A stretch of DNA of 40,444 bases from a virus (lineage: Duplodnaviria; Heunggongvirae; Uroviricota; Caudoviricetes). The number at the start of each line of letters is the position of its first letter. Positions within the stretch are counted from its first letter, which is position 1. The DNA lies in IMG/VR virus record IMGVR_UViG_2579778961_000003; one strand, given 5' to 3'. The position numbers and the translations under genes are program-made. The notes under the pieces are model-generated. The model saw only the letters and a program-made list of their open reading frames with translations. It did no database searches and was not told where the DNA came from. This document shows, piece by piece, positions 5,179-39,436 of this stretch.

Positions 5179-6274
5179 CAGACACTCCAGTCATGTTAAG
5201 AGTGATTGCCGTACAGTTTGCCCATTCGTTTTCTGCCACCACCCGCAGTGCCGGTGTCACCAGTTCAACCTGGTACACCCCGGAAACGGACAATGCACTG
5301 ATAATCTGGCTGGGGACAATATCGCGCCCCAGCGTGGCGGCACGTGATGCCACCCAGTTCTGTATGGCGCTGTTAGCGGCATCTTTTACAGACCTGGCAT
5401 CCTGATCACGATAGATCGTAATCCTGGCTTCAATGGTGTAATCCACCTTCACTGGTGTTTTAGCCCGCACTGTATCAGTGAGTGGCCTGACTTTCTCATC
5501 AGAGCAGAAACTCTCTACCAGCGTGAGAACACCGCCGTCCGGCAGACCGGTACTGAGCAGCGGATACAGATCTACGGTCCCGGGAACCGGGGAAAGCACA
5601 GCAACATCGACAATGTTGGGATGGGCCTGCATGGCATGAAAGCGGTATGCGCCACGGCTTCCGGCATTGGTGAATGACTCCGGGGCCAGCCTGATACGCT
5701 CCCGGAGCCTGTCATCGTCTTCCTGTTCTGAACCGCCGGAACTGGCCATCAGATTGCTCACCAGCAGGTTAACGTTATCAATCTCATCGAGTAACTGACT
5801 GACCTGCGCAGGTTGCCAGCCGTTACCAGCGGTACCGGGTTCGGTACAGGTGGCCGTGACATTGACCAGCAGCAATCCGGCCTTCAGTACCACATCTGTA
5901 TCGGTGGCAAAAATAACGCTGTCGGAAGCGCTGACGCGGGTGCCTGCCGGGATCAGCACATCAATGGCCAGTGCCTCATCTACGGAGAACTGGAGCGTGG
6001 TGGTGGCAGGCTGCGCGGCAAGACGGTATACACCGACCAGTTCACCGAGGTAATCAATCATCGGCTCACGGGCAAAGGCGACCAGATTCTGCTTTGCTGC
6101 CTCCTGTACCGCAACCCTGACCAGCATTTCGCGATAGGCCCACAGATCAATCAGCAGACGTTCTGCCTGTGCCGGGTACAGCGTTTTGCCGGTATCCGCT
6201 TCATACTTCGCAATCATTTCTGCCGTGATTTTGTCGGCATCGCGTTCAATAAAATCGGGTTCTGTCAGCGCCAT
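5171..6274 (-). CDS. Baseplate protein J-like
   Basis: 367 aa; order W-J-I-fibre matches the P2-type baseplate module. Confidence 0.75.
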   Translation of the reverse strand: MALTEPDFIERDADKITAEMIAKYEADTGKTLYPAQAERLLIDLWAYREMLVRVAVQEAAKQNLVAFAREPMIDYLGELVGVYRLAAQPATTTLQFSVDEALAIDVLIPAGTRVSASDSVIFATDTDVVLKAGLLLVNVTATCTEPGTAGNGWQPAQVSQLLDEIDNVNLLVSNLMASSGGSEQEDDDRLRERIRLAPESFTNAGSRGAYRFHAMQAHPNIVDVAVLSPVPGTVDLYPLLSTGLPDGGVLTLVESFCSDEKVRPLTDTVRAKTPVKVDYTIEARITIYRDQDARSVKDAANSAIQNWVASRAATLGRDIVPSQIISALSVSGVYQVELVTPALRVVAENEWANCTAITLNMTGVSDD

Positions 6275-28517: not shown

Positions 28518-28868
28518 TTAAAGCCCCATCGCAACAGCCAGGCAGACCGCTGCAACAATCAGTGCACGGCGGATTAACGCAGCAGAAAACACCAGGTGAA
28601 GGCCGGTCTGTACCGGGAAACGCCCTTCAGCCATCAGCCTGTCGTCATGTTTCAGGTACTGACCGGGACGGGCTTTGGGGAAGAGCGAACGGTCAAGCCA
28701 GTAACCCAGCACTGCTGCCAGCGTGATGAGTGCCAGCTTGTAGATCACAACAGGCAGCTGCTGTGGTGAGACCAGAGCGATGGTGCCCAGCAACAGCACT
28801 GAGGTCAGCAGCCAGCCGCTGAGGCGAGGTTTTTTAACAGGGGGAATGAATTTTTTCAGGTTTTTCAT
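28518..28868 (-). CDS. Putative holin (3 predicted TM segments)
   Basis: Start at ATG 28868 with AAGGAG RBS; three hydrophobic segments; first gene of the lysis cassette immediately upstream of the endolysin. Confidence 0.55.
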   Translation of the reverse strand: MKNLKKFIPPVKKPRLSGWLLTSVLLLGTIALVSPQQLPVVIYKLALITLAAVLGYWLDRSLFPKARPGQYLKHDDRLMAEGRFPVQTGLHLVFSAALIRRALIVAAVCLAVAMGL

Positions 28869-28998
28869 GTGTGTCTCCTTATCTGGTGGAGACAGCATCA
28901 CAAATACAGGGCGCGAAGGATTTTAAAGCGCGTTAAGAGAGCCGGGGATACGGGATGTGCAGGATAAACGATGAATTATTCACAGAGGAGAATACGAT

Positions 28999-29727
28999 AT
29001 GACGCAGACACTGAATCCGGTCATCACTGTCACCGTGTCCGGTCCTGTGGGCAGCGGTAAAAGTTACGTACTGGCGCGAATAGAGGAAGTGGTGAAACAG
29101 GAATTCGGAAACAGCGTCATTGTCGACGCCGCAGACGTGGACGGTGAGCGCCGTATGAGTGGGGATGATCTGAGCACATGGCAGAAACCACGGGCTGGCA
29201 CAGTGATCAGGCTGGAGGAATACACGGGACAGGGCCTGTTGTCATACGGCGAGGAGCGTATCTGTCGGACGAATGAGCTGCTGGATGTTATATGCCCCAC
29301 GGGCCGGCAACCCTGGATACTGCCCGATGCACTGCATGCCACCATTGCGGCACTGATGACAGTTTACGATCAGGAGCTGCTCATGAAGGAGTTACGTAAA
29401 CTCACTGGTCAGTCAACAGAATGTTGTTCGTCCCCGAAGTACGGCAAACAGGAACACATCCCGATTAACCAGCCTCCCCGGTTCTTCGACGAATACCTTC
29501 TGACACCGGAAAATAAAGCTGAGCATGAAGAGATCAAAGCGGCGTTGTTCCGGGAAATCAGGAAGATTGCTGAAATGCAACTGGAGGGCGGGCTGGACAG
29601 AGTGATGGCGAGAGGAGAATGGGCATCGCTGTTTGAAAGAGTTTCCCCGGAATTACTTCCCCTCGCACTGGCTATCGGGATTATGCAGACAGCGGATAAA
29701 CCTCACTTACGTTCATTAAACACGTAA
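28999..29727 (+). CDS. P-loop NTPase/kinase-like protein of unknown function
   Basis: Walker A motif VSGPVGSGKS at residues 13-22; GAGGAG RBS; lies in the accessory island between the late operon and the repressor. Confidence 0.6.
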   Translation: MTQTLNPVITVTVSGPVGSGKSYVLARIEEVVKQEFGNSVIVDAADVDGERRMSGDDLSTWQKPRAGTVIRLEEYTGQGLLSYGEERICRTNELLDVICPTGRQPWILPDALHATIAALMTVYDQELLMKELRKLTGQSTECCSSPKYGKQEHIPINQPPRFFDEYLLTPENKAEHEEIKAALFREIRKIAEMQLEGGLDRVMARGEWASLFERVSPELLPLALAIGIMQTADKPHLRSLNT

Positions 29728-30107
29728 CGCATAATCCGGGATACGCATTCAGCGATGACTGCATTTTCACCGGTTTTTACTGCATCCAGAAGTGACTCTT
29801 TAAATGGTACGGGCCGGGGCTGCAGAAAGGTCGGCATGGCATTGAGCAGACAGAGCGTTTTTTCCGTGAGGACGACATCAGCCGCTCCCACAGCCAGCAA
29901 CTGAGAGTAACGAATATAGCTGTTATCCCGAAGCCATATCAGCGTATCAATAAAACACCGGCACTTTTTCTGGTCGTGATCAACCTGGTCCGGGATATCG
30001 AAAAAACCAGAATAAATCAAAACCTGAGGTGCCGGATGCGTGTTCAGTAATCGGCAGAATATTTTGCCGGTGAGTACATAAAAATCATCATTTAAGGAGT
30101 GCATCAT
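29703..30107 (-). CDS. Hypothetical protein
   Basis: 134 aa ORF convergent with and overlapping the 3' end of the P-loop gene by 25 bp; weak RBS; lower-GC region. Confidence 0.4.
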   Translation of the reverse strand: MMHSLNDDFYVLTGKIFCRLLNTHPAPQVLIYSGFFDIPDQVDHDQKKCRCFIDTLIWLRDNSYIRYSQLLAVGAADVVLTEKTLCLLNAMPTFLQPRPVPFKESLLDAVKTGENAVIAECVSRIMRYVFNERK

Positions 30108-30321
30108 GAATCCCCGATTAACGTTAACAGAACATCAGCGCCGTGCTGAAGCAGTGAACAATGTTCTGGAAGATATTATCCGGTTATACCGCGGAGAACT
30201 GAGTGTCTGTCGTGCCGCTTTTCATTTTCAGGGAATACAAAAGCAGTTTGATACTTCTGTTTTTGCAGAAGGTATTACTTATGCCCTGGACCGGATAAGG
30301 TCAGAAAATCGCCCCGGATAA
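30106..30321 (+). CDS. Hypothetical small protein
   Basis: 71 aa ORF with strong AAGGAG RBS 6 nt upstream of the ATG. Confidence 0.5.
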   Translation: MNPRLTLTEHQRRAEAVNNVLEDIIRLYRGELSVCRAAFHFQGIQKQFDTSVFAEGITYALDRIRSENRPG

Positions 30322-30377
30322 TCCCTAAACCACATTAACAGAAATCCCGCCATCCCTGCCGCATCATGAAAGAACGA

Positions 30378-30405
30378 CCAGCCCGGCACCCGAAAGCCGG
30401 GCTGG
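30378..30405. other. Perfect 10-bp stem hairpin (possible terminator or RNA structure)
   Basis: ccagcccggc-acccgaaa-gccgggctgg; no strong T-tract on the plus strand, modest T-rich run on the minus strand. Confidence 0.4.
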
Positions 30406-30511
30406 TCATCGCCCCACAGGAATGCGCTGTGAGCCGACCAAGGTTCAGTCAGTCTCGCGAGACCTGACCAGACTGCCATATTTTTTAATAATTGTAAAAG
30501 GCTTGCAGATT

Positions 30512-31276
30512 ATGAAAATGCAGACATTACCCATCGTGCCGTGGATTGGTGGCAAACGCCGCCTTGCAAAACACATTCTGCCGCTGTTTCCGGCGCATGA
30601 ATGTTATGTGGAGCCGTTTTGTGGGGCAGCAGCGCTCTATTTTCTTAAGACACCCGGCAAGATCGAAGTCATCAATGATATCAACGGTGAACTGGTGAAT
30701 CTGTACCGGGTGGTAAAGCATCACCTGGAAGAATTTGTCCGCCAGTTCAAATGGGCGCTGGTCAGCCGTCAGATCTACAAATGGCTGCAGATCACCCCGG
30801 AAGAAACACTGACGGATATCCAGCGTGCGGCACGGTTCTACTACCTTCAGAAGCAGGCGTTTGGCGGCAAGGTGGCAGAGCACAGCTTCGGTACCTCCAC
30901 CACATCCCCGCCACGCTTCAACCTGCTACGTATTGAAGAAGAACTGTCAGCGGCACACCTGCGGCTTTCCAGAACAGTCATAGAACACATGGACTGGCAA
31001 CAGTGCATTGAGCGTTATGATCGTCCGCACACGCTGTTCTACTGCGACCCACCGTACCTGGGTACGGAAGGCTATGGTGTGGATTTTCCTGAAGGGAACT
31101 ACTCGCGGCTGGCAGAGCTGGCCCGGTGCATCAGAGGAAAAATGATAATTTCGGTGAACGACATCCCGCAGATGCGCGAGGTGTTCACTGGACTGAACAT
31201 ACAGACAGTGAATATCAACTACAGTCTGGCGGGTAAACCCACGCCGCGCCGTGAACTGCTAATCTGCAACTTCTGA
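30512..31276 (+). CDS. DNA N6-adenine methyltransferase (Dam-like, orphan)
   Basis: Motif I EPFCGAAALYF and motif IV DPPY (LFYCDPPYLGT); no adjacent endonuclease candidate; start chosen at ATG 30512 rather than ORF-track 30422. Confidence 0.9.
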   Translation: MKMQTLPIVPWIGGKRRLAKHILPLFPAHECYVEPFCGAAALYFLKTPGKIEVINDINGELVNLYRVVKHHLEEFVRQFKWALVSRQIYKWLQITPEETLTDIQRAARFYYLQKQAFGGKVAEHSFGTSTTSPPRFNLLRIEEELSAAHLRLSRTVIEHMDWQQCIERYDRPHTLFYCDPPYLGTEGYGVDFPEGNYSRLAELARCIRGKMIISVNDIPQMREVFTGLNIQTVNINYSLAGKPTPRRELLICNF

Positions 31277-31283
31277 AACAAAA

Positions 31284-31306
31284 CCGGAAAGCACAATGCT
31301 TTCCGG
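31284..31306 (-). terminator. Probable terminator of the repressor transcript
   Basis: Hairpin ccggaaagc-acaat-gctttccgg; on the minus strand it is followed by TTTTGTTTC. Confidence 0.5.
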
Positions 31307-31392
31307 TAAACCAAACAACTTCCACTATGTCACTGGCGATGTTTTCTGAAAGCATCCAGATCAACCACCTGTCCTTTGTGTCCGGGTCAGTA

Positions 31393-31749
31393 TCAGCCTG
31401 CGATTTTTCCTGGTTTTGGCTGAGTATAGAATCGCCCAATCTCAAGAAATGAGCGTTGTTGGTCTGGTGTCATGTCGTCAAAAGTATCTATTAGTTTTTG
31501 TTTTTCTGGGGAAATTTGATTCTGGTTTCTAGTCATACCATCTGTGCTCATTCCAGTGAGCAACCAATTTACATCAACATTAAACTCTTGATGCATCTTT
31601 AACAGAAACTCCCCTCCAGGCATCGCCTTTCCATTTTCAATCTGACTGATACCACCATTAGAAATACCTAAACGAGCTGCAAATTCTCTCTGGTTCAACC
31701 CTGCTTTCTTCCTCACAGAAATAACGCGCTCTCCTATATCTTTGCTCAT
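31393..31749 (-). CDS. Prophage repressor (HTH XRE family; Mu c-equivalent)
   Basis: N-terminal HTH (LNQREFAARLGISNGGISQIENGK), divergently transcribed from the early operon, operator palindrome in the intergenic region. Confidence 0.75.
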   Translation of the reverse strand: MSKDIGERVISVRKKAGLNQREFAARLGISNGGISQIENGKAMPGGEFLLKMHQEFNVDVNWLLTGMSTDGMTRNQNQISPEKQKLIDTFDDMTPDQQRSFLEIGRFYTQPKPGKIAG

Positions 31750-31789
31750 AAAAGTGAATCTCTATCTTGATATGCTCATAATTATGAGC
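31743..31789. promoter_or_regulatory. Operator/early promoter region with 18-bp perfect palindrome
   Basis: TGCTCATAATTATGAGCA at 31772-31789 and a TGCTCATA half-site at 31743-31750 overlapping the repressor start codon. Confidence 0.6.
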
Positions 31790-31842
31790 AATAATCTAAC
31801 ACATATAAGGCAAACATCATTGCATCAACAAAGGAGACAACG

Positions 31843-32031
31843 ATGACTGCAGAACAAGTCAAAGCTCTCTTCCGCCAGCGCGGGATCACTTTCACCCGCT
31901 GGGCAGAAGAAAACGGCTACAACCGCAATGAGGTATACCGCGTTCTCAACGGGCAGACCAAAGCCCGTTACGGTAAATCCCATGAAATCGCCGTGAAGTT
32001 GGGACTGAAATCAACAGCTCAGGCGGCCTAA
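31843..32031 (+). CDS. Small DNA-binding early regulator (Ner/Cro-equivalent)
   Basis: 62 aa basic protein, first rightward gene after the operator, AAAGGAG RBS; assignment by position rather than clear Ner motif match. Confidence 0.5.
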   Translation: MTAEQVKALFRQRGITFTRWAEENGYNRNEVYRVLNGQTKARYGKSHEIAVKLGLKSTAQAA

Positions 32032-32077
32032 ATATTTTGAGTCTTTGTAAAAGGTTATCACATATCGCAAAAGAGGT

Positions 32078-32392
32078 ATGCAGATGAGTAAGACGAATGT
32101 TTCAAGCTCCGGCAGTCGCATCCTCCGGGTACTCAAAGCGCTGCGCGGTCATGCCCTGAACGGTATTTCTAACGGTGAACTGGCGACAGCACTGCACGAG
32201 TCACCGGCAAACATCAACCGGGCACTCAACACCCTCATTGAAGAAGGGCTGGCTCTGAAACTGGAGAACGGACGTTTTGCACCGGGCATCCAGTTACTGC
32301 AGATCGCCATGGCCCACAGTAACGAGATGGCACGTGCACAGGATCGTATTAACGAAATTAACCAACGTGTCATTTCAGGTAGTCGTTTGTAA
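32078..32392 (+). CDS. Winged-helix DNA-binding protein (putative transcriptional regulator)
   Basis: 104 aa; HTH-like segment ISNGELATALHESPANINRALNTLIEEGL; AAGAGG RBS. Confidence 0.45.
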   Translation: MQMSKTNVSSSGSRILRVLKALRGHALNGISNGELATALHESPANINRALNTLIEEGLALKLENGRFAPGIQLLQIAMAHSNEMARAQDRINEINQRVISGSRL

Positions 32393-32402
32393 GGAGTAAT
32401 CA

Positions 32403-33323
32403 ATGGGACGTACCAAATCACCGATTAACACTGAACTGAACGCCGATGTACCGCTGTCGGATGATCTCAACGTCAGCCTGAATGCCATGACACAGCATCG
32501 CATGGAGATCATGCAGCAGTTTGGTGATGGACTGCCTTATGAACGTGAACGCATCGTTCACGAAGCACGTTTTTATATGGCGCAGAGTGCTGAATCTATG
32601 TTGGAAGCGGGTAAGCGGCTGATCATCTTAAAAGAAAATGAACCGCATGGTGATTTCACAAATATTCTGGAAAACGACCTCGGATTAGCACCACAGGTAG
32701 CTCGTCGCATGATGCAGGCCAGCGTGAAATTTCTCGGCAATGGAGATGAACAGCCAAAACGCTCAGCGCTGAGCGTTTTGGGAAAAACCAAGTTATATGA
32801 ACTGATGGTTCTGGATGACGAAGAACTCGACGCATTAGCTGATGGTGGAACCGTCGCCGGTGCAACGCTTGATGATATTGATCGCATGACCAGCCGCGAA
32901 CTGAAGGCCGCCCTGCGTGAAGCGCGCGAAACCAACGCAGCTCAGCAACAGGTGCTTGCCGGAAAGGACGAAAAAATCAACGAACTGGCCACAAAACTGG
33001 AGAAGAAATCGCGCCTGCAACCTCCGCCGCCAGACGAAGAACTGAAAAAATTGCGGGCGGAAGTGACGGCATTAGCGGTTGAGGCCGAATCGGCTATCGC
33101 CGTCCGGCTGTCCAGTGTTTTTGAGACCCTGTGTGAATACTGCACCAAAAACATGATCGATACCCCCAGAGATTTCATGGCCGGTCTGGTCTGCCAGATT
33201 GAACGCAGTGTTCATGCATTACGTGAGACGTTTGACCTTGAGGCCGCTCCATCGGGTAACGATGCCCCCGCCTGGCTGACCGAACCGGAACCTGAAATCA
33301 ACCGACCGGAGGATATGCAGTAA
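32403..33323 (+). CDS. Hypothetical early protein
   Basis: 306 aa ORF with acidic/coiled-coil regions between regulator genes and transposase. Confidence 0.5.
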   Translation: MGRTKSPINTELNADVPLSDDLNVSLNAMTQHRMEIMQQFGDGLPYERERIVHEARFYMAQSAESMLEAGKRLIILKENEPHGDFTNILENDLGLAPQVARRMMQASVKFLGNGDEQPKRSALSVLGKTKLYELMVLDDEELDALADGGTVAGATLDDIDRMTSRELKAALREARETNAAQQQVLAGKDEKINELATKLEKKSRLQPPPPDEELKKLRAEVTALAVEAESAIAVRLSSVFETLCEYCTKNMIDTPRDFMAGLVCQIERSVHALRETFDLEAAPSGNDAPAWLTEPEPEINRPEDMQ

Positions 33324-33640
33324 TGAATACGAATAACACACAAAATACCCTGATGGACAGCCCGGAGGCACTGGGGCACGCACTGTGTAATCTGCTGCCG
33401 GAGATGGTGCAGGGTTTCCGCGTGGTGACCCCTTCCGGTGAAATCTGCGTACCCGCACAGGAGACGCACCCGTTTGTACTGACGATGGAGGTGATGCTGA
33501 TGCAGCAGATAAGACGTCTGCAGAATCAGTCAGCATTACGCCCGGTAGTTGCACCGCAACCGGTAAATACCGTGGTGAAAACCTGCGATGGCGAAACACT
33601 GTGCGACCTCGCCAGAAAAATTGCCGCCAGAATCGGATAA
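33323..33640 (+). CDS. Hypothetical early protein
   Basis: 105 aa ORF, start overlaps upstream stop. Confidence 0.4.
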   Translation: MNTNNTQNTLMDSPEALGHALCNLLPEMVQGFRVVTPSGEICVPAQETHPFVLTMEVMLMQQIRRLQNQSALRPVVAPQPVNTVVKTCDGETLCDLARKIAARIG

Positions 33641-33655
33641 CAGGGAAGACAAGCT

Positions 33656-35425
33656 ATGACCCCGGCACTGACTGAAAAACTGGTTGAAACAGCCCGCGCG
33701 GCACGTGACGCGGGGCATGGTAAACGCGGTGCAATATACGACGCTGCCTGTGCTGAACTTGGCATGTCCCGCGCCACTCTGCTGCGCAGGCTGAAGGAGG
33801 TATCTGTGACTGATAAACGCAAAAAACGCGCCGATGCCGGGCGCAGCGCCCTGACCCGCGACGAAGCCGCGCTGATATCTGCCACACTGCGTGAGGCCAC
33901 CCGCAAGAACGGTAAGCGTCTCTATTCCATCGCAGATGCAGTGGAAACCCTGCGGGCTAACGGCTTTATCACCGCAGGCAGAACAGATGAAACCACCAGT
34001 GAGTTTTTCCCGTTGTCTGAAGATGCCATCAGCCGTGCTCTGCGTAACTATGGCCTGCACCCGGAACAACTGGATGCCCCTGCACCACATACCGAAGTGG
34101 CCAGTCTGCATCCCAATCATGTCTGGCAGATTGACGCCTCACTCTGCACGCTTTACTACCTGAGCAATGGACATAAAGGGCTGCAGGTGATGGACAGCGC
34201 GAAGTTCTACAAGAACAAGCCCGCTAACCTTGCCCGTATCGCCAGTGACCGCGTGTGGAGTTACGAGATTACCGACCATGCCAGCGGCTGGATTTACGTT
34301 GAGTATGTGACGGGCGCGGAATCAGGTGAGAACCTGTGTTCTGTGCTTATCAACGCCATGCAGGAGCGTGGCGGCGCAGACGTGCTGCACGGCGTGCCGA
34401 AAATACTCTATCTCGACCCCGGCTCGGCAAACACCGCGGGTATGACGAAAAACATGTGCCGCTCACTGGGCATCGACCTGATAGCGCACAAGCCGCATAA
34501 CGCCCGCGCCACCGGACAGGTGGAAAAGGCGCGTGACATTATCGAACGCAAGCTGGAGCCGGGTCTGAAGTTCCGGCCGGTTCACAGTCTGGAAGAACTC
34601 AACGCGCTGGCCGCGAAATGGCGCAGCCACTTTAACGCCACGGCTGTTCACAGCCGCCACGGTAAAACCCGCACGGATATCTGGCTGAAGATTACTGCTG
34701 AGCAGCTGAAAAAAGCGCCTTCCGTTGAGGTATGTCGTGAACTGGCTGTGGCGGCACCAGAACTCCGCAAAGTCACGCCAAAACTTCGTGTCTCGTTCCG
34801 GGGCACTGAATTTGACGTATCAACGGTACCGGGCGTACTGGTTGGTGAAAAACTGATGATTACCCGTAACCCATGGCGCAGCGATGTGGCACAGGTGGTT
34901 CTGACCGGTGAGGACGGCCACGAGACGTTCTTCCTGGTCGAAGAGGTCAGAAAGAACGAGTTTGGCTTTGCTGAAGGCGCGGCGGTATTTGGCGAAAGTT
35001 ACAAAGCCCTGCCGGAAACCCCGGCACAGATGGCGGCAAAAGAAACCGAAGCGCTGGTTACCGGTACAGACAACGCCGCAGATGCAGCCGCCGCACGCAA
35101 GGCGAAGGCGCTGCCGTTCGGCGGGCGGCTTGACCCGTATAAACATATCGACGACACCACACTTCCGGCCTATATGCCGAAGCGTGGTCAGGCCTCTGAC
35201 GTACGCGGGCCGCGCACTGAACAACGTCCCATGACTCATGTGGAGGCCGCGAAAGCCCTGCGCGATAAGTTCAGCGCCGACGGCCTTACCTGGACGCCGG
35301 AACATTACCGCCAGTTAACGGCACAGTACCCGGACGGCGTACCGGAAGCCGCACTGGATGAAGTCATGGCCACGCTGACCACACCGGCCCGCAGCAGTGT
35401 TATCAGCATTGTTAACGGCAACTGA
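33656..35425 (+). CDS. DDE transposase (Mu A-like)
   Basis: 589 aa; N-terminal DNA-binding region; integrase-core-like HPNHVWQIDAS segment; followed by an AAA+ B-like gene. Confidence 0.8.
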   Translation: MTPALTEKLVETARAARDAGHGKRGAIYDAACAELGMSRATLLRRLKEVSVTDKRKKRADAGRSALTRDEAALISATLREATRKNGKRLYSIADAVETLRANGFITAGRTDETTSEFFPLSEDAISRALRNYGLHPEQLDAPAPHTEVASLHPNHVWQIDASLCTLYYLSNGHKGLQVMDSAKFYKNKPANLARIASDRVWSYEITDHASGWIYVEYVTGAESGENLCSVLINAMQERGGADVLHGVPKILYLDPGSANTAGMTKNMCRSLGIDLIAHKPHNARATGQVEKARDIIERKLEPGLKFRPVHSLEELNALAAKWRSHFNATAVHSRHGKTRTDIWLKITAEQLKKAPSVEVCRELAVAAPELRKVTPKLRVSFRGTEFDVSTVPGVLVGEKLMITRNPWRSDVAQVVLTGEDGHETFFLVEEVRKNEFGFAEGAAVFGESYKALPETPAQMAAKETEALVTGTDNAADAAAARKAKALPFGGRLDPYKHIDDTTLPAYMPKRGQASDVRGPRTEQRPMTHVEAAKALRDKFSADGLTWTPEHYRQLTAQYPDGVPEAALDEVMATLTTPARSSVISIVNGN

Positions 35426-35435
35426 GGAGGGAAAC

Positions 35436-36602
35436 ATGCTGGTACTGAAGCAGCAACTGAAAGAGGCCCGTATTCCACAGGCGGTGGTGGCGAGAGCTGT
35501 CGATGTTTCTGAGGCCACGCTGGCCCAGATTGTGAATCATAACGCGTGGCCCCGCACCAGCCCCGGAGAAGTGCGCCGGCGTCTTGCGTCCTGGCTGGAA
35601 AGTCAGGGGATTGATACAACGAAGAGTTTTGATGCTGTACAGGGCGCGGCCACGCCCCGTACAGCGGGTACCACAGATAAAACGAGCCTCAGTGAGGAAG
35701 AGAATATGTTACTCAAAAAACAGGTGTTATTTCCAGCAACCAAAAAAGCGTTTGGTCTTTTCCGTGACCCGTTCGCCGACGAAGCCATGCAGGGTTCTGA
35801 TGATGTGTTCACCACCCCGGACATTCGCTACGTGCGTGAGGCGCTGTACCAGACAGCCCGTCATGGTGGGTTTATGGCCGTCATCGGTGAGTCCGGTGCG
35901 GGTAAATCCACGCTGCGCCGCGACCTGACTGAACGTATCAACCGCGAGAATGCGCCGGTAATTGTTATCGAGCCATACATCATCGCTATGGAAGACAACG
36001 ATGTGAAAGGGAAAACCCTGAAGGCAGCAGCTATTGCCGAAGCCATTATCAGTACCATCGCACCACTGGAAAGCATCAGACGCAGTCAGGACGCCCGTTT
36101 TCGCCAGTTGCATCGCGTCCTGAAAGACAGCAGCCAGGCGGGGTTCAGCCACGTTCTGGTGATTGAGGAGGCCCACAGTCTGCCCATTCCGACACTGAAA
36201 CACCTCAAACGCTTTTTTGAGCTGGAGTCCGGTTTCAAAAAACTGCTGTCCATCGTGCTGATTGGCCAGCCGGAACTGGCGACAAAACTGTCTGAACGCA
36301 ATATGGAAGTCCGTGAAGTCGTTCAGCGCTGTGAGGTGGTCGAACTTCTGCCTCTGGACAATAACCTTGAAGAATTTCTGACGTTCAAACTGCAACGGGC
36401 CGGTAAACAGCTGACGGACATTATGGACGCCGGTGCAGTGGATGCCATACGTGCCCGCCTGAGCAATCCGGGAAGTCACCGTAAAAATATGGTCAGCCTG
36501 CTGTATCCGCTGGCCGTCAGTAACCTGGTAATAGCCGCCATGAATCTGGCCGCTGAAATCGGGGTTCCACAGGTCAACGCTGACGTTGTCAAAGGGGTTT
36601 AA
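35436..36602 (+). CDS. Transposition ATPase (Mu B-like, AAA+)
   Basis: Walker A GESGAGKST, N-terminal HTH-like region; start placed at ATG 35436 with GGAGGG RBS. Confidence 0.75.
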   Translation: MLVLKQQLKEARIPQAVVARAVDVSEATLAQIVNHNAWPRTSPGEVRRRLASWLESQGIDTTKSFDAVQGAATPRTAGTTDKTSLSEEENMLLKKQVLFPATKKAFGLFRDPFADEAMQGSDDVFTTPDIRYVREALYQTARHGGFMAVIGESGAGKSTLRRDLTERINRENAPVIVIEPYIIAMEDNDVKGKTLKAAAIAEAIISTIAPLESIRRSQDARFRQLHRVLKDSSQAGFSHVLVIEEAHSLPIPTLKHLKRFFELESGFKKLLSIVLIGQPELATKLSERNMEVREVVQRCEVVELLPLDNNLEEFLTFKLQRAGKQLTDIMDAGAVDAIRARLSNPGSHRKNMVSLLYPLAVSNLVIAAMNLAAEIGVPQVNADVVKGV

Positions 36603-36604
36603 TA

Positions 36605-36874
36605 ATGAAATCCACCACAGGTATCAACCAGCAAATCAGCAAAGTGCAGTCAGCCATTATGGCGCTTAAGGCGACGAACACGGATGTACAAAGCATCACC
36701 ATCAGGGGTAACAAACCTGTCATCCGCGTTTCCCGGAGTGCGCATTGCATGCGCATGCTTGAGCAGGGAAAGGCCTGTTATCTGTATACCGGACATGACC
36801 ACAGGGGATATTTCCGTCAGGGCGTTTTCGAACTGCACGGCTGTCGCGTCGTGTGGCCGGAATCTTTGTGGTAA
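36605..36874 (+). CDS. Hypothetical early protein
   Basis: 89 aa ORF immediately after B-like gene. Confidence 0.4.
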   Translation: MKSTTGINQQISKVQSAIMALKATNTDVQSITIRGNKPVIRVSRSAHCMRMLEQGKACYLYTGHDHRGYFRQGVFELHGCRVVWPESLW

Positions 36875-36901
36875 TCAGCACAACTGGAGAAATCATAAAA
36901 A

Positions 36902-37432
36902 ATGGCAAAAAGTACAAAAGGTGCAAAACGTATCAAGGCCGCAGCAGCACTCTGGGTGCCGGGGACACGTGAAGAGGTCATTGAGGGAATCAGACTACTC
37001 GGTGACGCACAACGTGAACTGGTCAGGGCTGAAACAGAAATGAATGACGCCATTGGCGATATCACCGCACGTTATGCCCCGCTCACCGAGAGCCTGAAAA
37101 AACGCATGGCCGAACTGCAGTCCGGTATTCAGACATGGTGTGAGGCACACCGTGATGAACTGACCGGCAACGGGAAGGTGAAGTTCGCTAACCTCACCAC
37201 CGGCGAGGTGCAGTGGCGAAACCGTCCGCCATCAGTCAGTATCCGTGGGGCGGATAATGTTATTGAATTACTGAGACGTCTGGGGCTTGAGCGCTTTATT
37301 CGTGTAAAAGAGGAAATAAATAAAGACGCTATCCTGAATGAAAAAGAGGCCGTGAAAAATATTCCCGGTATTTCCATTAAAAGCGACATTGAGGATTTTT
37401 CAATAATTCCTTTTGAGCAGGATGTGCAGTAA
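36902..37432 (+). CDS. gam: Host-nuclease inhibitor Gam-like protein
   Basis: 176 aa, size and coiled-coil character of Mu Gam; located in semi-essential early region after B. Confidence 0.65.
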   Translation: MAKSTKGAKRIKAAAALWVPGTREEVIEGIRLLGDAQRELVRAETEMNDAIGDITARYAPLTESLKKRMAELQSGIQTWCEAHRDELTGNGKVKFANLTTGEVQWRNRPPSVSIRGADNVIELLRRLGLERFIRVKEEINKDAILNEKEAVKNIPGISIKSDIEDFSIIPFEQDVQ

Positions 37433-37529
37433 ACACACCACGTTAATTATTTAATAAAAACATTTTCTTTTTTATTCCGACGTCAGCGCCGCGGGCTTCT
37501 GCACGCCGGAAACAGAGGAGAATTAAATC

Positions 37530-37724
37530 ATGATATTTAAATGTATTCAGTGCGAGAGGGATATAACAGCCCTGCGTTTTCACAGCGCCATCGCCGTGAT
37601 GTCCGGTAAATACCACATCCCTGCGGTACGCGTCACCCTGGTCTGCCCGTACTGCAGCCAGCATTTTTCGGCAGACGTGCCCGTCATGGAATTCTCCCGC
37701 CCTGACAGGGAGGACTCGCAATGA
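37530..37724 (+). CDS. Small zinc-ribbon protein
   Basis: Two CxxC pairs (CIQC ... CPYC) in 64 aa. Confidence 0.45.
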   Translation: MIFKCIQCERDITALRFHSAIAVMSGKYHIPAVRVTLVCPYCSQHFSADVPVMEFSRPDREDSQ

Positions 37725-37993
37725 TTACCCCACAGGAAGCACGACAGCGCACCCGAACCCTTGTTGAACACTATGTCAACGAGTGTGAATGCCGCGACCT
37801 CACCGATGTGAAGCACGTCCTGACGGCGCTAATCAGCATGGCCACACAGGCCATTGTGGCGACCAACGGAAAGGAGGCTGCCCTGCAGGTACTGATGAAC
37901 ACACTCACCCACACGGCAGAGCATGAGGTGCCGTACCGGATGGAAACCACTGCAGAAGGCGGCCTGCACATCACCGTCAGCCGGAAGCACTGA
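37721..37993 (+). CDS. Hypothetical early protein
   Basis: 90 aa ORF, start overlaps upstream stop. Confidence 0.4.
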   Translation: MITPQEARQRTRTLVEHYVNECECRDLTDVKHVLTALISMATQAIVATNGKEAALQVLMNTLTHTAEHEVPYRMETTAEGGLHITVSRKH

Positions 37994-38002
37994 GGGCGCG
38001 GC

Positions 38003-38299
38003 ATGACACGAAACACCGAACTCACCCGCACCGCCCTCTACCGTCTGGCCCTGCAGCGTTTCGGGCCGGACGCACAGGCCCTGAAACTGGCAGAAGAGGC
38101 CGCTGAACTGGCGGCCAGTGCCGCCCGCAACCTGAACGGACAGGGCAGCGAAAGTGACCTCGCGGCAGAGCTGGCAGACGTGGAAATCATGACAGAGCAA
38201 CTGCGCCTTCAGGGGATGGACCGGCTGATTGACTTCCACAAACAGAAAAAACTGGAACGTCTGGCTGCACGACTGGGCGTGATTTACACGAACGAGTAA
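38003..38299 (+). CDS. Small MazG-like nucleotide pyrophosphohydrolase (putative)
   Basis: 98 aa, EEAAELA...ELADVEIM pattern reminiscent of MazG-like helices; assignment tentative. Confidence 0.4.
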   Translation: MTRNTELTRTALYRLALQRFGPDAQALKLAEEAAELAASAARNLNGQGSESDLAAELADVEIMTEQLRLQGMDRLIDFHKQKKLERLAARLGVIYTNE

Positions 38300-38313
38300 C
38301 CGGGAGGCATTCA

Positions 38314-38529
38314 ATGGCTGACATACTCAGGGAAATCACCGCATGGACACTGATTCTTACTGGCCTGGCGACATGCCTCAGTGCGGGGGCAGCCCTGGCT
38401 GCCCTGCTGATGCACATAACAACACAGTGGTTATGGGAAAAGCTTAAAGCAGCATACAGCCTGAAAGAGCTGTCCGACGCTGTCCGGGCATGGAAACGGC
38501 AGAAAAATACCGGAGATACAGAACAATGA
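38314..38529 (+). CDS. Small membrane protein
   Basis: 71 aa with one hydrophobic segment (WTLILTGLATCLSAGAALAALL). Confidence 0.4.
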   Translation: MADILREITAWTLILTGLATCLSAGAALAALLMHITTQWLWEKLKAAYSLKELSDAVRAWKRQKNTGDTEQ

Positions 38530-39209
38530 CAGACCAGAATAAACACATTGAGAAACTGAAAAAGTTGCTGGCGCTGGCCGCATCCGGCAACCCGCACGAG
38601 GCCGCTCTGGCACTGCGCCGAGCCCGTAAACTGATGGATGTTCACGGCATCACACATTCCGACATTGCTATGAGTGATATTGATGAAACCATCAGTCACT
38701 ACTGGCCGACAGGCAGTCTCCGTCCACCGCGCTACATGCTGGGCCTGATGAACATCATCCGCGAGGTATTTGGTGTTAACTCCATCATTCACCCCGGCAC
38801 GCATCCGTCTGTGGGGTTCTACGGCAACCGGGAACGTGCGGCACTGGCTGCATACACCTGGGAAGTGCTGGCCCGTCAGCTGAAAAAGGCGCGTCAGCAG
38901 TATATCAGTGCACAGAACAAAAGAATAAAAACCGCCACCCGCACCAGCCGTGGAGACCAGTTTGCCGAAGGCTGGGTGCTGGCCGTTATCAGTGAAATAC
39001 AGTCCTTTGCCCTGACCGATGATGAGCGTGAACTGATGCAGCAGTGGCTGGAACATAAATACCCGCAGACGCAAACCACCAGGGCGCGTAAACCGGGAAG
39101 AAGCCGCAATGGCGACGCCTCGCGCTATGCGGGGTTTCGTGAAGGGCAGAACGTCAGACTGCACCGCCCGGTCAGTGGGCAGGAACAACAGAAACTGGAG
39201 GCCAGATGA
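38526..39209 (+). CDS. Hypothetical early protein (DUF2786-like N-terminus)
   Basis: N-terminal IEKLKKLLALAASGNPHEAALALRRA pattern; start placed at ATG 38526. Confidence 0.45.
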   Translation: MTDQNKHIEKLKKLLALAASGNPHEAALALRRARKLMDVHGITHSDIAMSDIDETISHYWPTGSLRPPRYMLGLMNIIREVFGVNSIIHPGTHPSVGFYGNRERAALAAYTWEVLARQLKKARQQYISAQNKRIKTATRTSRGDQFAEGWVLAVISEIQSFALTDDERELMQQWLEHKYPQTQTTRARKPGRSRNGDASRYAGFREGQNVRLHRPVSGQEQQKLEAR

Positions 39210-39436
39210 TTACGCTATCAGGTAAAAGCCGGAAATTAAAAGCCTGCCGAATATCTGCCAGATACCTTTTTGCCCGCGCCTTTTTTAAGAACGTCAGGCC
39301 GGGGATCACAATTGGTGTTATTGCCGGACGCGAACAGGTTGAAAAATACATGTCAGGTGCATGGTGGAATAACGACCCTGTCATTGCTGCCCGTAATATT
39401 CATATCGAATGGGGAGGTATTCAGAATGACTACTGA
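39206..39436 (+). CDS. Hypothetical protein
   Basis: 76 aa ORF. Confidence 0.3.
   Translation: MITLSGKSRKLKACRISARYLFARAFFKNVRPGITIGVIAGREQVEKYMSGAWWNNDPVIAARNIHIEWGGIQNDY

Follow-up and report, generated by a model that had tools for sequence, protein, structure and literature searches.

A solitary Dam-related adenine methyltransferase gene, very probably that of M.EcoMIV, in a BcepMu-like prophage of Escherichia coli

The methyltransferase gene and its setting

The DNA analyzed here, a stretch of 40,444 nucleotides (IMG/VR record IMGVR_UViG_2579778961_000003; hereafter the window), is a BcepMu-like transposable prophage. Over the 3.2 kb around its methyltransferase gene it is 100% identical to Escherichia phage PhiKM, which is classified in Bcepmuvirus, and the methyltransferase region is also 100% identical to prophage Phi2 of the E. 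coli ST131 strain EC958; in ST131 strains, the prophage adjoins ycaL. The gene order is of the BcepMu type, unlike that of Mu: the lysis and structural late genes and a cI-type repressor gene are read leftward, and a rightward early operon encodes an rve-family transposase, an ExeA-like ATPase, Gam, GemA and a Mor-family activator. The preliminary description of this DNA had measured the locus against Mu and its Mom function. As the phage is BcepMu-like, with a transposase of the Tn552/rve type, and is not Mu proper, the comparison with Mom has to be withdrawn as an expectation and can be kept as an analogy.

The methyltransferase gene has the leftward late lysis/structural operon on one side and the leftward repressor gene on the other, and the following features are distinguished around it.

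30376..30407, no strand assigned: conserved hairpin with a 12-bp stem, about 105 nt before the start codon (RNA folds, conservation)
30408..30511, plus strand: conserved leader, non-coding, linking the upstream hairpin to the start codon (alignments with relatives)
30512..31276, plus strand: coding sequence of a solitary D12-class (alpha-group) N6-adenine DNA methyltransferase of 254 amino acids (open reading frame, PF02086, identity to WP_000783854.1)
31283..31307, minus strand: intrinsic-terminator-like hairpin directly past the methyltransferase stop codon (terminator scan, RNA folds)

The open reading frame at 30512–31276, the stop codon included, encodes 254 amino acids, and RefSeq places the start at the same position. 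The GenBank record of PhiKM gives a longer version of 284 amino acids from an ATG at 30422. We rejected this N-terminal extension: in relatives its frame is broken by a 1-nt indel and early stop codons, and only the first six or so codons are similar, so we take 30512 as the start. Reading the frame from 30422 as a Com-like peptide was rejected as well, as indels in the relatives break that frame.

Two hairpins and a conserved leader

The hairpin at 31283–31307 has a stem of 11 bp with six G-C pairs. Its tail on the minus strand is TTTGTTTCAG, and that on the plus strand, TAAACCAAAC, contains no U-tract. It folds at about −18 kcal/mol; against shuffled sequences, the z-scores are −7.4 on the plus strand and −3.5 on the minus strand. 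Upstream of the hairpin on the minus strand, at a distance of 86 nt, is the stop codon of the convergent repressor gene (HTH_3, 118 amino acids, 31393–31749, minus strand), and a Klebsiella relative has a hairpin of different sequence at the equivalent 3' place. From its T-rich tail, this hairpin had been described as oriented for the repressor transcript. The terminator scan, which calls it on the minus strand, and the folds agree with that orientation, and it is probable, judging from sequence and predicted structure, that the hairpin terminates the convergent repressor transcript.

The hairpin at 30376–30407 is where similarity between lineages begins, and it bounds the conserved methyltransferase module on its left. 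It folds at −29.8 kcal/mol on the plus strand and −41.4 kcal/mol on the minus strand (z-scores of −4.8 and −6.8, respectively), and the relatives in Klebsiella, Salmonella and Pectobacterium have kept it, with four compensatory base-pair changes among the four distinct sequences. Its pyrimidine- and U-rich tail, GUUCUUUCA, belongs to the minus strand, and a simple terminator scan made no call at this position. It may be a second minus-strand terminator that shields the late lysis operon, or else a 5' regulatory element of the methyltransferase unit.

Between this hairpin and the start codon, the leader holds a conserved −10-like element, TATTTT, and an AAAGG ribosome-binding site. It also contains a perfect 12-bp palindrome, GTCTCGCGAGAC, at 30452–30463. 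The palindrome occurs once in the window, for which reason we rejected it as a repeated operator, and no motif common to the leader and the late promoter region was seen. Presumably the leader holds the methyltransferase promoter together with an operator. A sigma-70-like match, CTGACC-17-AATAAT, is present in the window but is not conserved in relatives, and we do not rely on it; among the relatives aligned, no conserved sigma-70 consensus promoter was found upstream of the methyltransferase gene, which fits conditional expression of the enzyme. A scan of 28800–32200 against Rfam gave no matches, and the leader folds no better than its shuffled counterparts (z-score of −0.98).

Probable identity with M.EcoMIV, and distribution

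The gene is already known: it is annotated, it is listed in REBASE and it has been described in the literature, and finding it here is a rediscovery. Translation of the gene gives a protein identical to WP_000783854.1, which EC958 encodes in the same prophage at the same position, and WP_000783854.1 is the only methylase annotated on the EC958 prophage Phi2. Forde et al. (2015, PMC4659465) described M.EcoMIV (EC958_1101) as a type II orphan methyltransferase carried by Phi2. As the window's enzyme is identical to the only methylase on that prophage, it is very probably M.EcoMIV; the link is made through prophage, position, protein identity and the single methylase present, the RefSeq record being without the old locus tag EC958_1101. 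For M.EcoMIV, which has a PF02086 domain, the term “Dam homolog” was used; its transcription in mid-log culture was significantly below that of dam, and no methylation motif was attributed to it (PMC4659465). It is reported to be conserved in most strains of ST131 clade C (PMC5654935).

Of 5426 complete E. coli genomes, 531 have the 1-kb stretch that contains the gene, and in 388 of these 531 carriers it is at least 99% identical. Beyond E. coli, homologues of 85–88% identity are abundant across the Enterobacteriaceae, and in every context that we examined (a Klebsiella-type copy found in six chromosomes and in a record named “KP12”, Salmonella and Pectobacterium) the homologue is carried by a BcepMu-like prophage and occupies the same slot, between holin and repressor. 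In BcepMu itself, the slot contains no methyltransferase.

An intact N6-adenine methyltransferase

The assignment to the D12 class is supported by a match to PF02086 (E-value of 6e-29; 102 bits, with a cut-off of 22 bits) that extends over residues 11–234 of the protein and over positions 1–248 of the 253 in the profile. In addition, the protein matches the PADLOC MTase_II model PDLC03253 (E-value of 6e-112) and PHROG 56, “DNA methyltransferase” (E-value of 1.5e-100). The order of motifs is that of the alpha group: motif I, EPFCGAAALYF (residues 34–44), is followed towards the C-terminus by motif IV, DPPY (residues 179–182), with residues from about 70 to 137, between the two, making up the helical and hairpin region that corresponds to the target-recognition region. 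The preliminary description had reported a full-length N6-adenine methyltransferase with these same two motifs, and this account is borne out by the length of 254 amino acids and the coverage of nearly the whole profile.

Closer alignment revealed no dead catalytic motifs. In a family alignment of 82 sequences, G13, K15, G38, D56, E158, D170 and the D179-P-P-Y182 motif are invariant, a further 19 positions are at least 90% conserved, and F36, within F36-C-G38-A-A, is invariant or nearly so. The second glycine of the FxGxG pattern in motif I is alanine in this protein. Alanine is the majority state across the family, and the substitution is thus a family trait, not a defect. An AlphaFold2 (AF2) model of the protein (pLDDT of 91.9) has as its best Foldseek matches in the PDB EcoDam, DpnM, Mcbe1 and T4 Dam, with TM-scores of 0.67–0.81; EcoDam and DpnM score 0.79–0.81, with E-values of about 1e-17. 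The sequence DPPY rather than SPPY favors adenine as the methylated base. Mcbe1 (7M6B), which shares the fold, may be an N4-cytosine enzyme.

When the copies of the gene from E. coli, Klebsiella, Salmonella and Pectobacterium are compared in pairs, dN/dS is 0.04–0.09 at dS values of 0.5–2, which points to a working gene. This bears on the notion that the gene is a decaying, non-functional remnant that is carried passively by the prophage. The low transcription in EC958, the lack of a motif attributed to the enzyme there and the alanine at the second glycine of motif I could all be read in that direction. However, purifying selection acts across genera, every catalytic residue is invariant with the motif I alanine being the common family state, the reading frame is full length across genera, and the stretch is at least 99% identical in most of its E. 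coli carriers, as given above. On this evidence, decay is extremely improbable. The analysis confirms that the gene encodes a solitary alpha-class N6-adenine DNA methyltransferase with intact catalytic motifs, and AdoMet-dependent formation of N6-methyladenine is its predicted activity.

No restriction partner found in a hypervariable slot

The genes that flank the methyltransferase differ from one prophage lineage to another. In the window, the neighbors are open reading frames of 242 amino acids (a P-loop protein), 134 amino acids and 71 amino acids; in the Klebsiella type, they are a DUF2441 gene and a 177-amino acid open reading frame; in Salmonella, there are open reading frames of 85 and 312 amino acids; and in Pectobacterium, there are four others. 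When compared with the arrangement in Salmonella and Pectobacterium, the three-gene island of the window, which includes the open reading frames 28999–29727 and 29703–30107, has been inserted so as to separate the late promoter region from the methyltransferase module.

We found no nuclease among the three island open reading frames, the repressor and the holin with Pfam, NCBIfam, PADLOC and PHROGs, and none for two of the island open reading frames against PDB sequences. Neither a nuclease nor a defense match was found among the methyltransferase neighbors in the Klebsiella, Salmonella and Pectobacterium prophages. The methyltransferase is conserved while its neighbors change, none of them nuclease-like, which argues strongly for an enzyme that works alone. 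The earlier statement that it lacks a nuclease partner extends from the window to four other lineages of the prophage family, in which the flanking genes are all different, and the homology searches for an adjacent restriction endonuclease (Pfam, NCBIfam, PADLOC and PDB sequences) turned up none.

It could still be supposed that the enzyme is the modification half of a restriction-modification or defense system of which the effector is the adjacent 242-, 134- or 71-amino acid protein. The best PADLOC hit of the methyltransferase is to a “type II MTase” model, the 242-amino acid neighbor has a weak P-loop match (AAA_30, E-value of 0.007), and some homologues are named “restriction endonuclease subunit M” in databases. 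However, the three candidate effectors match no nuclease or defense family. They are also absent beside the Klebsiella, Salmonella and Pectobacterium methyltransferases, where unrelated genes take their place, and their island is inserted between the late promoter region and the hairpin–methyltransferase module. We consider such a partnership very unlikely. That the enzyme is an orphan with no restriction partner is well supported by these comparisons, and a cryptic nuclease in the window's island is unlikely.

Separately, a putative restriction-modification “moron” beside the homologue in phage phi1026b was inspected and set aside, since it is a type VI effector–immunity module of the PAAR / VRR-NUC / TsiV kind and not a restriction enzyme.

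What has been conserved in the slot is more than the coding sequence. The methyltransferase gene, the upstream hairpin and the leader together are the conserved unit in an otherwise hypervariable slot of enterobacterial BcepMu-like prophages, and this is one of two useful additions of the present analysis.

Likeness to Dam and the question of target specificity

Identity to EcoDam and DpnM is about 24–27%. The protein fails the EcoDam equivalog model NF008152, which has a cut-off of 441 bits, at a score of 67 bits; on the broad dam subfamily model TIGR00571, it is marginally above the threshold (116.6 bits, cut-off of 114.85). In EcoDam, as is reported from work on structure 2G1P, GATC is read mainly by Y119, N120, L122, R124, P134, R137 and Y138 of a beta-hairpin, together with K9, and R124 is said to contact guanine. 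A profile alignment with hhalign places G118, K120, A122, S129, T130 and T131 at the positions of N120, L122, R124, P134, R137 and Y138, respectively. The same six positions are unconserved in phmmer and MAFFT alignments, which makes three independent alignments in agreement. Only two of the GATC-reading residues of EcoDam have retained counterparts: K9 corresponds to K15 of the window's enzyme, and Y119 to F117. The tip of the hairpin is the most variable part of the family. With the GATC-reading residues missing, a GATC target cannot be assumed. The phage sequence itself is depleted in GATC (observed/expected ratio of 0.56), and the site would thus seem to be still selected against.

These data bear on the possibility that the enzyme is a GATC-specific Dam isoenzyme, like those of T4, T1 or P1, which would top up GATC methylation on fast-replicating phage DNA, be it for protection against DpnII/MboI-type enzymes, for handling by MutH and SeqA, or as a packaging or regulatory signal. 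The score above the broad “dam” cut-off speaks for it, as does the fact that the nearest solved folds all belong to GATC enzymes, and that the lysine of the N-terminal WxGGK motif (EcoDam K9) and an aromatic residue at the Y119 position are kept. The EC958 methylome, which yielded no new motif, is also what a redundant GATC enzyme would give (PMC4659465), but poor transcription would explain the missing motif equally well. Set against this are the replacement of six contact residues by G, K, A, S, T and T, the variability of the hairpin tip across the family, the low score against the equivalog model and the depletion of GATC. On balance, we regard GATC specificity as unlikely, though the least remote of the alternatives to be weighed here. 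The earlier label “Dam-type” is accordingly sound for the fold and the class of the enzyme, which match those of Dam, but should not be extended to GATC specificity, given the lost contact residues and the failed equivalog model.

The literature offers little guidance on what the target would be. No recognition site is known for any homologue of M.EcoMIV of more than 65% identity (PMC4659465), and none was found in the literature that we searched for the family, including phi1026b gp26, phiHAP-1 gp26 and the Acinetobacter phage protein; the VHML and BcepMu papers were uninformative in this respect. Similarly, the methyltransferase of the Campylobacter CJIE1 prophage is without an assigned recognition site, and a paper on ST101 methylomes lists similar methyltransferases of unknown specificity. 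As a reference for GATC recognition, HP1 Dam was dropped, being a protein of 173 amino acids and of a different type.

A possible role in protecting phage DNA

Anti-restriction and phage gene regulation, the two functions put forward in the preliminary description, are both plausible. The reading that we favor, with somewhat better than even confidence, is that the enzyme methylates phage DNA during lytic replication, and so protects it from restriction in the next host. The methyltransferase would be expressed as a small plus-strand unit of its own, consisting of the upstream hairpin, the leader of about 105 nt and the coding sequence. The downstream hairpin would stop the repressor transcript before it could run antisense through the methyltransferase gene towards the lysis genes. 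With repressor and lysis genes both on the minus strand, the two hairpins together may block transcription of the repressor strand into the lysis operon. The methyltransferase promoter may be weak or dependent on a further factor, matching the low transcript level in the lysogen. The enzyme would use AdoMet to methylate the N6 of adenine within a short DNA motif, such that replicating phage DNA becomes methylated after induction, and packaged genomes are shielded on entering the next host. With little expression in the lysogen, it would be a functional counterpart of Mom in Mu or of the FluMu-type methyltransferases. Of this explanation, the analysis shows the identity of the protein, its intact motifs and Dam-like fold, the purifying selection, the lack of a partner and the orientation of the hairpin, whereas we infer the timing of expression, the target motif and the protective role.

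The case for protection draws together the near-core conservation of the gene, the purifying selection upon it, its solitary status, its poor expression in the lysogen and the precedent of Mom and FluMu: many restriction enzymes are blocked by the adenine methyltransferases found in Mu-like prophages without mom (PMC3299994). Other observations weigh on the other side. A homologue of about 65–66% identity in phi1026b is transcribed in the lysogen (PMC2920897), which would allow for a lysogenic, host-directed role, and the gene of the window is not at the mom position and is not accompanied by a com-like regulator. Nor did the analysis yield a confident promoter for it.

A host-directed role would make the enzyme an epigenetic regulator, expressed from the prophage in the manner of a moron and methylating regulatory sites of the host or the phage rather than protecting against restriction, with altered host gene expression, maintenance of lysogeny or transposition as the outcome. 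The location of the gene, as an independent cassette in a hypervariable accessory slot adjoining the immunity region, is consistent with such a function, and so is the lysogenic transcription of the phi1026b homologue. Roles of this kind have been proposed in the literature for VHML-type phage methyltransferases, to which that of phiHAP-1 is similar according to its record, where gp26 is likened to the methyltransferases of VP882, VHML and phiE125. In the EC958 lysogen, however, transcription of the gene is significantly below that of dam, and the enzyme has been assigned no methylation motif from which clusters of candidate target sites could be defined. We hold a regulatory role to be improbable, and slightly more so than a GATC-specific isoenzyme.

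Within the protective reading, a more specific version can be put forward tentatively, and with clearly less confidence than protection as such. The divergent hairpin (F117-G-G-K...F126-G) may direct the enzyme to a non-GATC or relaxed adenine motif. The enzyme might then act as an activator-dependent, lytic equivalent of Mom, with the upstream hairpin and the palindromic leader serving as its control element and as an insulator of the lysis operon against repressor-strand transcription.

As a discovery the gene is ordinary, since orphan methyltransferases are common in phages. Nevertheless, roughly a tenth of the complete E. coli genomes carry the methyltransferase stretch, and prophages of five other genera (Klebsiella, Salmonella, Enterobacter, Citrobacter and Pectobacterium) have close copies. 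Knowledge of the target site would fill a gap in several published methylomes, which list “Dam-like prophage orphans of unknown specificity”, and could account for the passage of these phages between strains whose restriction systems differ. What the present analysis usefully adds is that GATC is not to be presumed as the target.

Comparison with known systems

Mom of phage Mu is a possible functional analogue, in that a transposable phage modifies its own adenines against restriction. It belongs, however, to an unrelated superfamily (acyltransferase), its chemistry is N6-acetamido modification of adenine, and its gene is located elsewhere in the genome. Mu Mom is controlled by Dam, OxyR, C and Com (PMC3299994), none of which features was seen in the window.

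Hia5, Hin1523 and Nma1821 are, like the window's enzyme, Dam-related DPPY methyltransferases of transposable prophages without mom (PMC3299994). They are non-specific adenine methyltransferases for which broad anti-restriction is presumed (Drozdz et al. 2012, PMC3299994). Membership of their subfamily was rejected for the window's enzyme: in a BLASTP comparison with SuMu gp53, which represents the Hia5-type subfamily at the com–mom position, the E-value was 0.023 and the alignment was confined to the motifs, and SuMu gp53 scores 23 bits on PF02086 as compared with 102 bits for the window's enzyme. The contexts also differ, as Hia5-type genes lie at the mom position behind com, whereas the gene of the window, between the lysis cassette (or the island) and the repressor, adjoins the immunity region, and no com-like open reading frame was found near it.

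With the GATC-specific alpha-class enzymes EcoDam, DpnM and T4 Dam (PDB 2G1P, 2DPM and 1YFL), the window's enzyme has in common the fold, the order of motifs, the lysine of WxGGK, motif I and DPPY, and the aromatic residue at the Y119 position of EcoDam is kept, but identity to these enzymes is only 17–27%. EcoDam, moreover, is a chromosomal housekeeping enzyme, whereas that of the window is phage-borne.

Members of the same subfamily are found in phi1026b of Burkholderia (gp26, about 65–66% identity), phiHAP-1 of Halomonas (gp26, 62%) and the Acinetobacter phage Acba_3 (58%). Like that of the window, these methyltransferases are encoded by solitary genes in temperate phages, but the phages are of other types and the genes lie at other positions, following either the lysis genes or tail gene D. 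M.EcoMIV, finally, has the same D12 domain, and shows no differences from the protein encoded in the window.

Start, leader and upstream hairpin of the methyltransferase gene

In the GenBank record of Escherichia phage PhiKM, the methyltransferase begins at ATG 30422, giving a protein of 284 aa. We reject this start, as the frame of the resulting 30-codon extension is not kept in the related prophages, and the ATG lacks a usable ribosome-binding site. The stretch 30422-30511 is a conserved non-coding leader. The hairpin on the 5' side of the gene is found at the following positions:

30376-30407, window
5863-5894, related locus L009
4863-4894, related locus L018
4863-4895, related locus L021

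The hairpin has been preserved in four genera, its pairing maintained by four compensatory base-pair changes. It may act as a minus-strand terminator or insulator, or else as a 5' regulatory element.

Neighbouring genes

The accessory island comprises three genes, whose products are all assigned to PHROGs of unknown function:

28999-30321, accessory island encoding proteins of 242 aa (P-loop at the N-terminus), 134 aa (minus strand) and 71 aa

Comparison with the prophages of Salmonella and Pectobacterium identifies the island as an insertion that separates the late (holin) promoter region from the hairpin-methyltransferase module; the island's sole match among phage records is PhiKM. On the other side of the gene, a 41-aa ORF (31327-31452, plus strand), annotated in PhiKM as a hypothetical protein, lies antisense to the repressor gene and overlaps its 3' end; this ORF is probably spurious.

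The methyltransferase family in other contexts

In Burkholderia phage phi1026b, the genes adjoining a 66% identical methyltransferase homologue have been named a "restriction modification moron" (PMC2920897). These genes (locus L007, 6949-9356) encode a PAAR protein, a VRR-NUC protein and a TsiV immunity protein, and we reject the label in favour of a type VI secretion effector-immunity module. The family also occurs as two to four matched stretches in each of several giant proteins of 800-2500 aa (P0123, P0138, P0141, P0149, P0175, P0186 and P0235), which may be multi-methyltransferase fusions.

Scarcity of GATC and CTAG

GATC is depleted in the window as a whole: it occurs 111 times, where about 200 occurrences would be expected (ratio 0.56). 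It is absent over the 6149 bp of 33155-39304, which span the genes for the transposase, the ExeA-like ATPase and gam, together with the early genes downstream. CTAG occurs once in the window. The Klebsiella and Salmonella relatives share the scarcity of GATC in the early region, whereas this region is not GATC-poor in the Pectobacterium relative or in BcepMu. Regions without GATC have been remarked on by Forde et al. 2015 (PMC4659465) for the mobile elements of E. coli ST131 strain EC958 generally.
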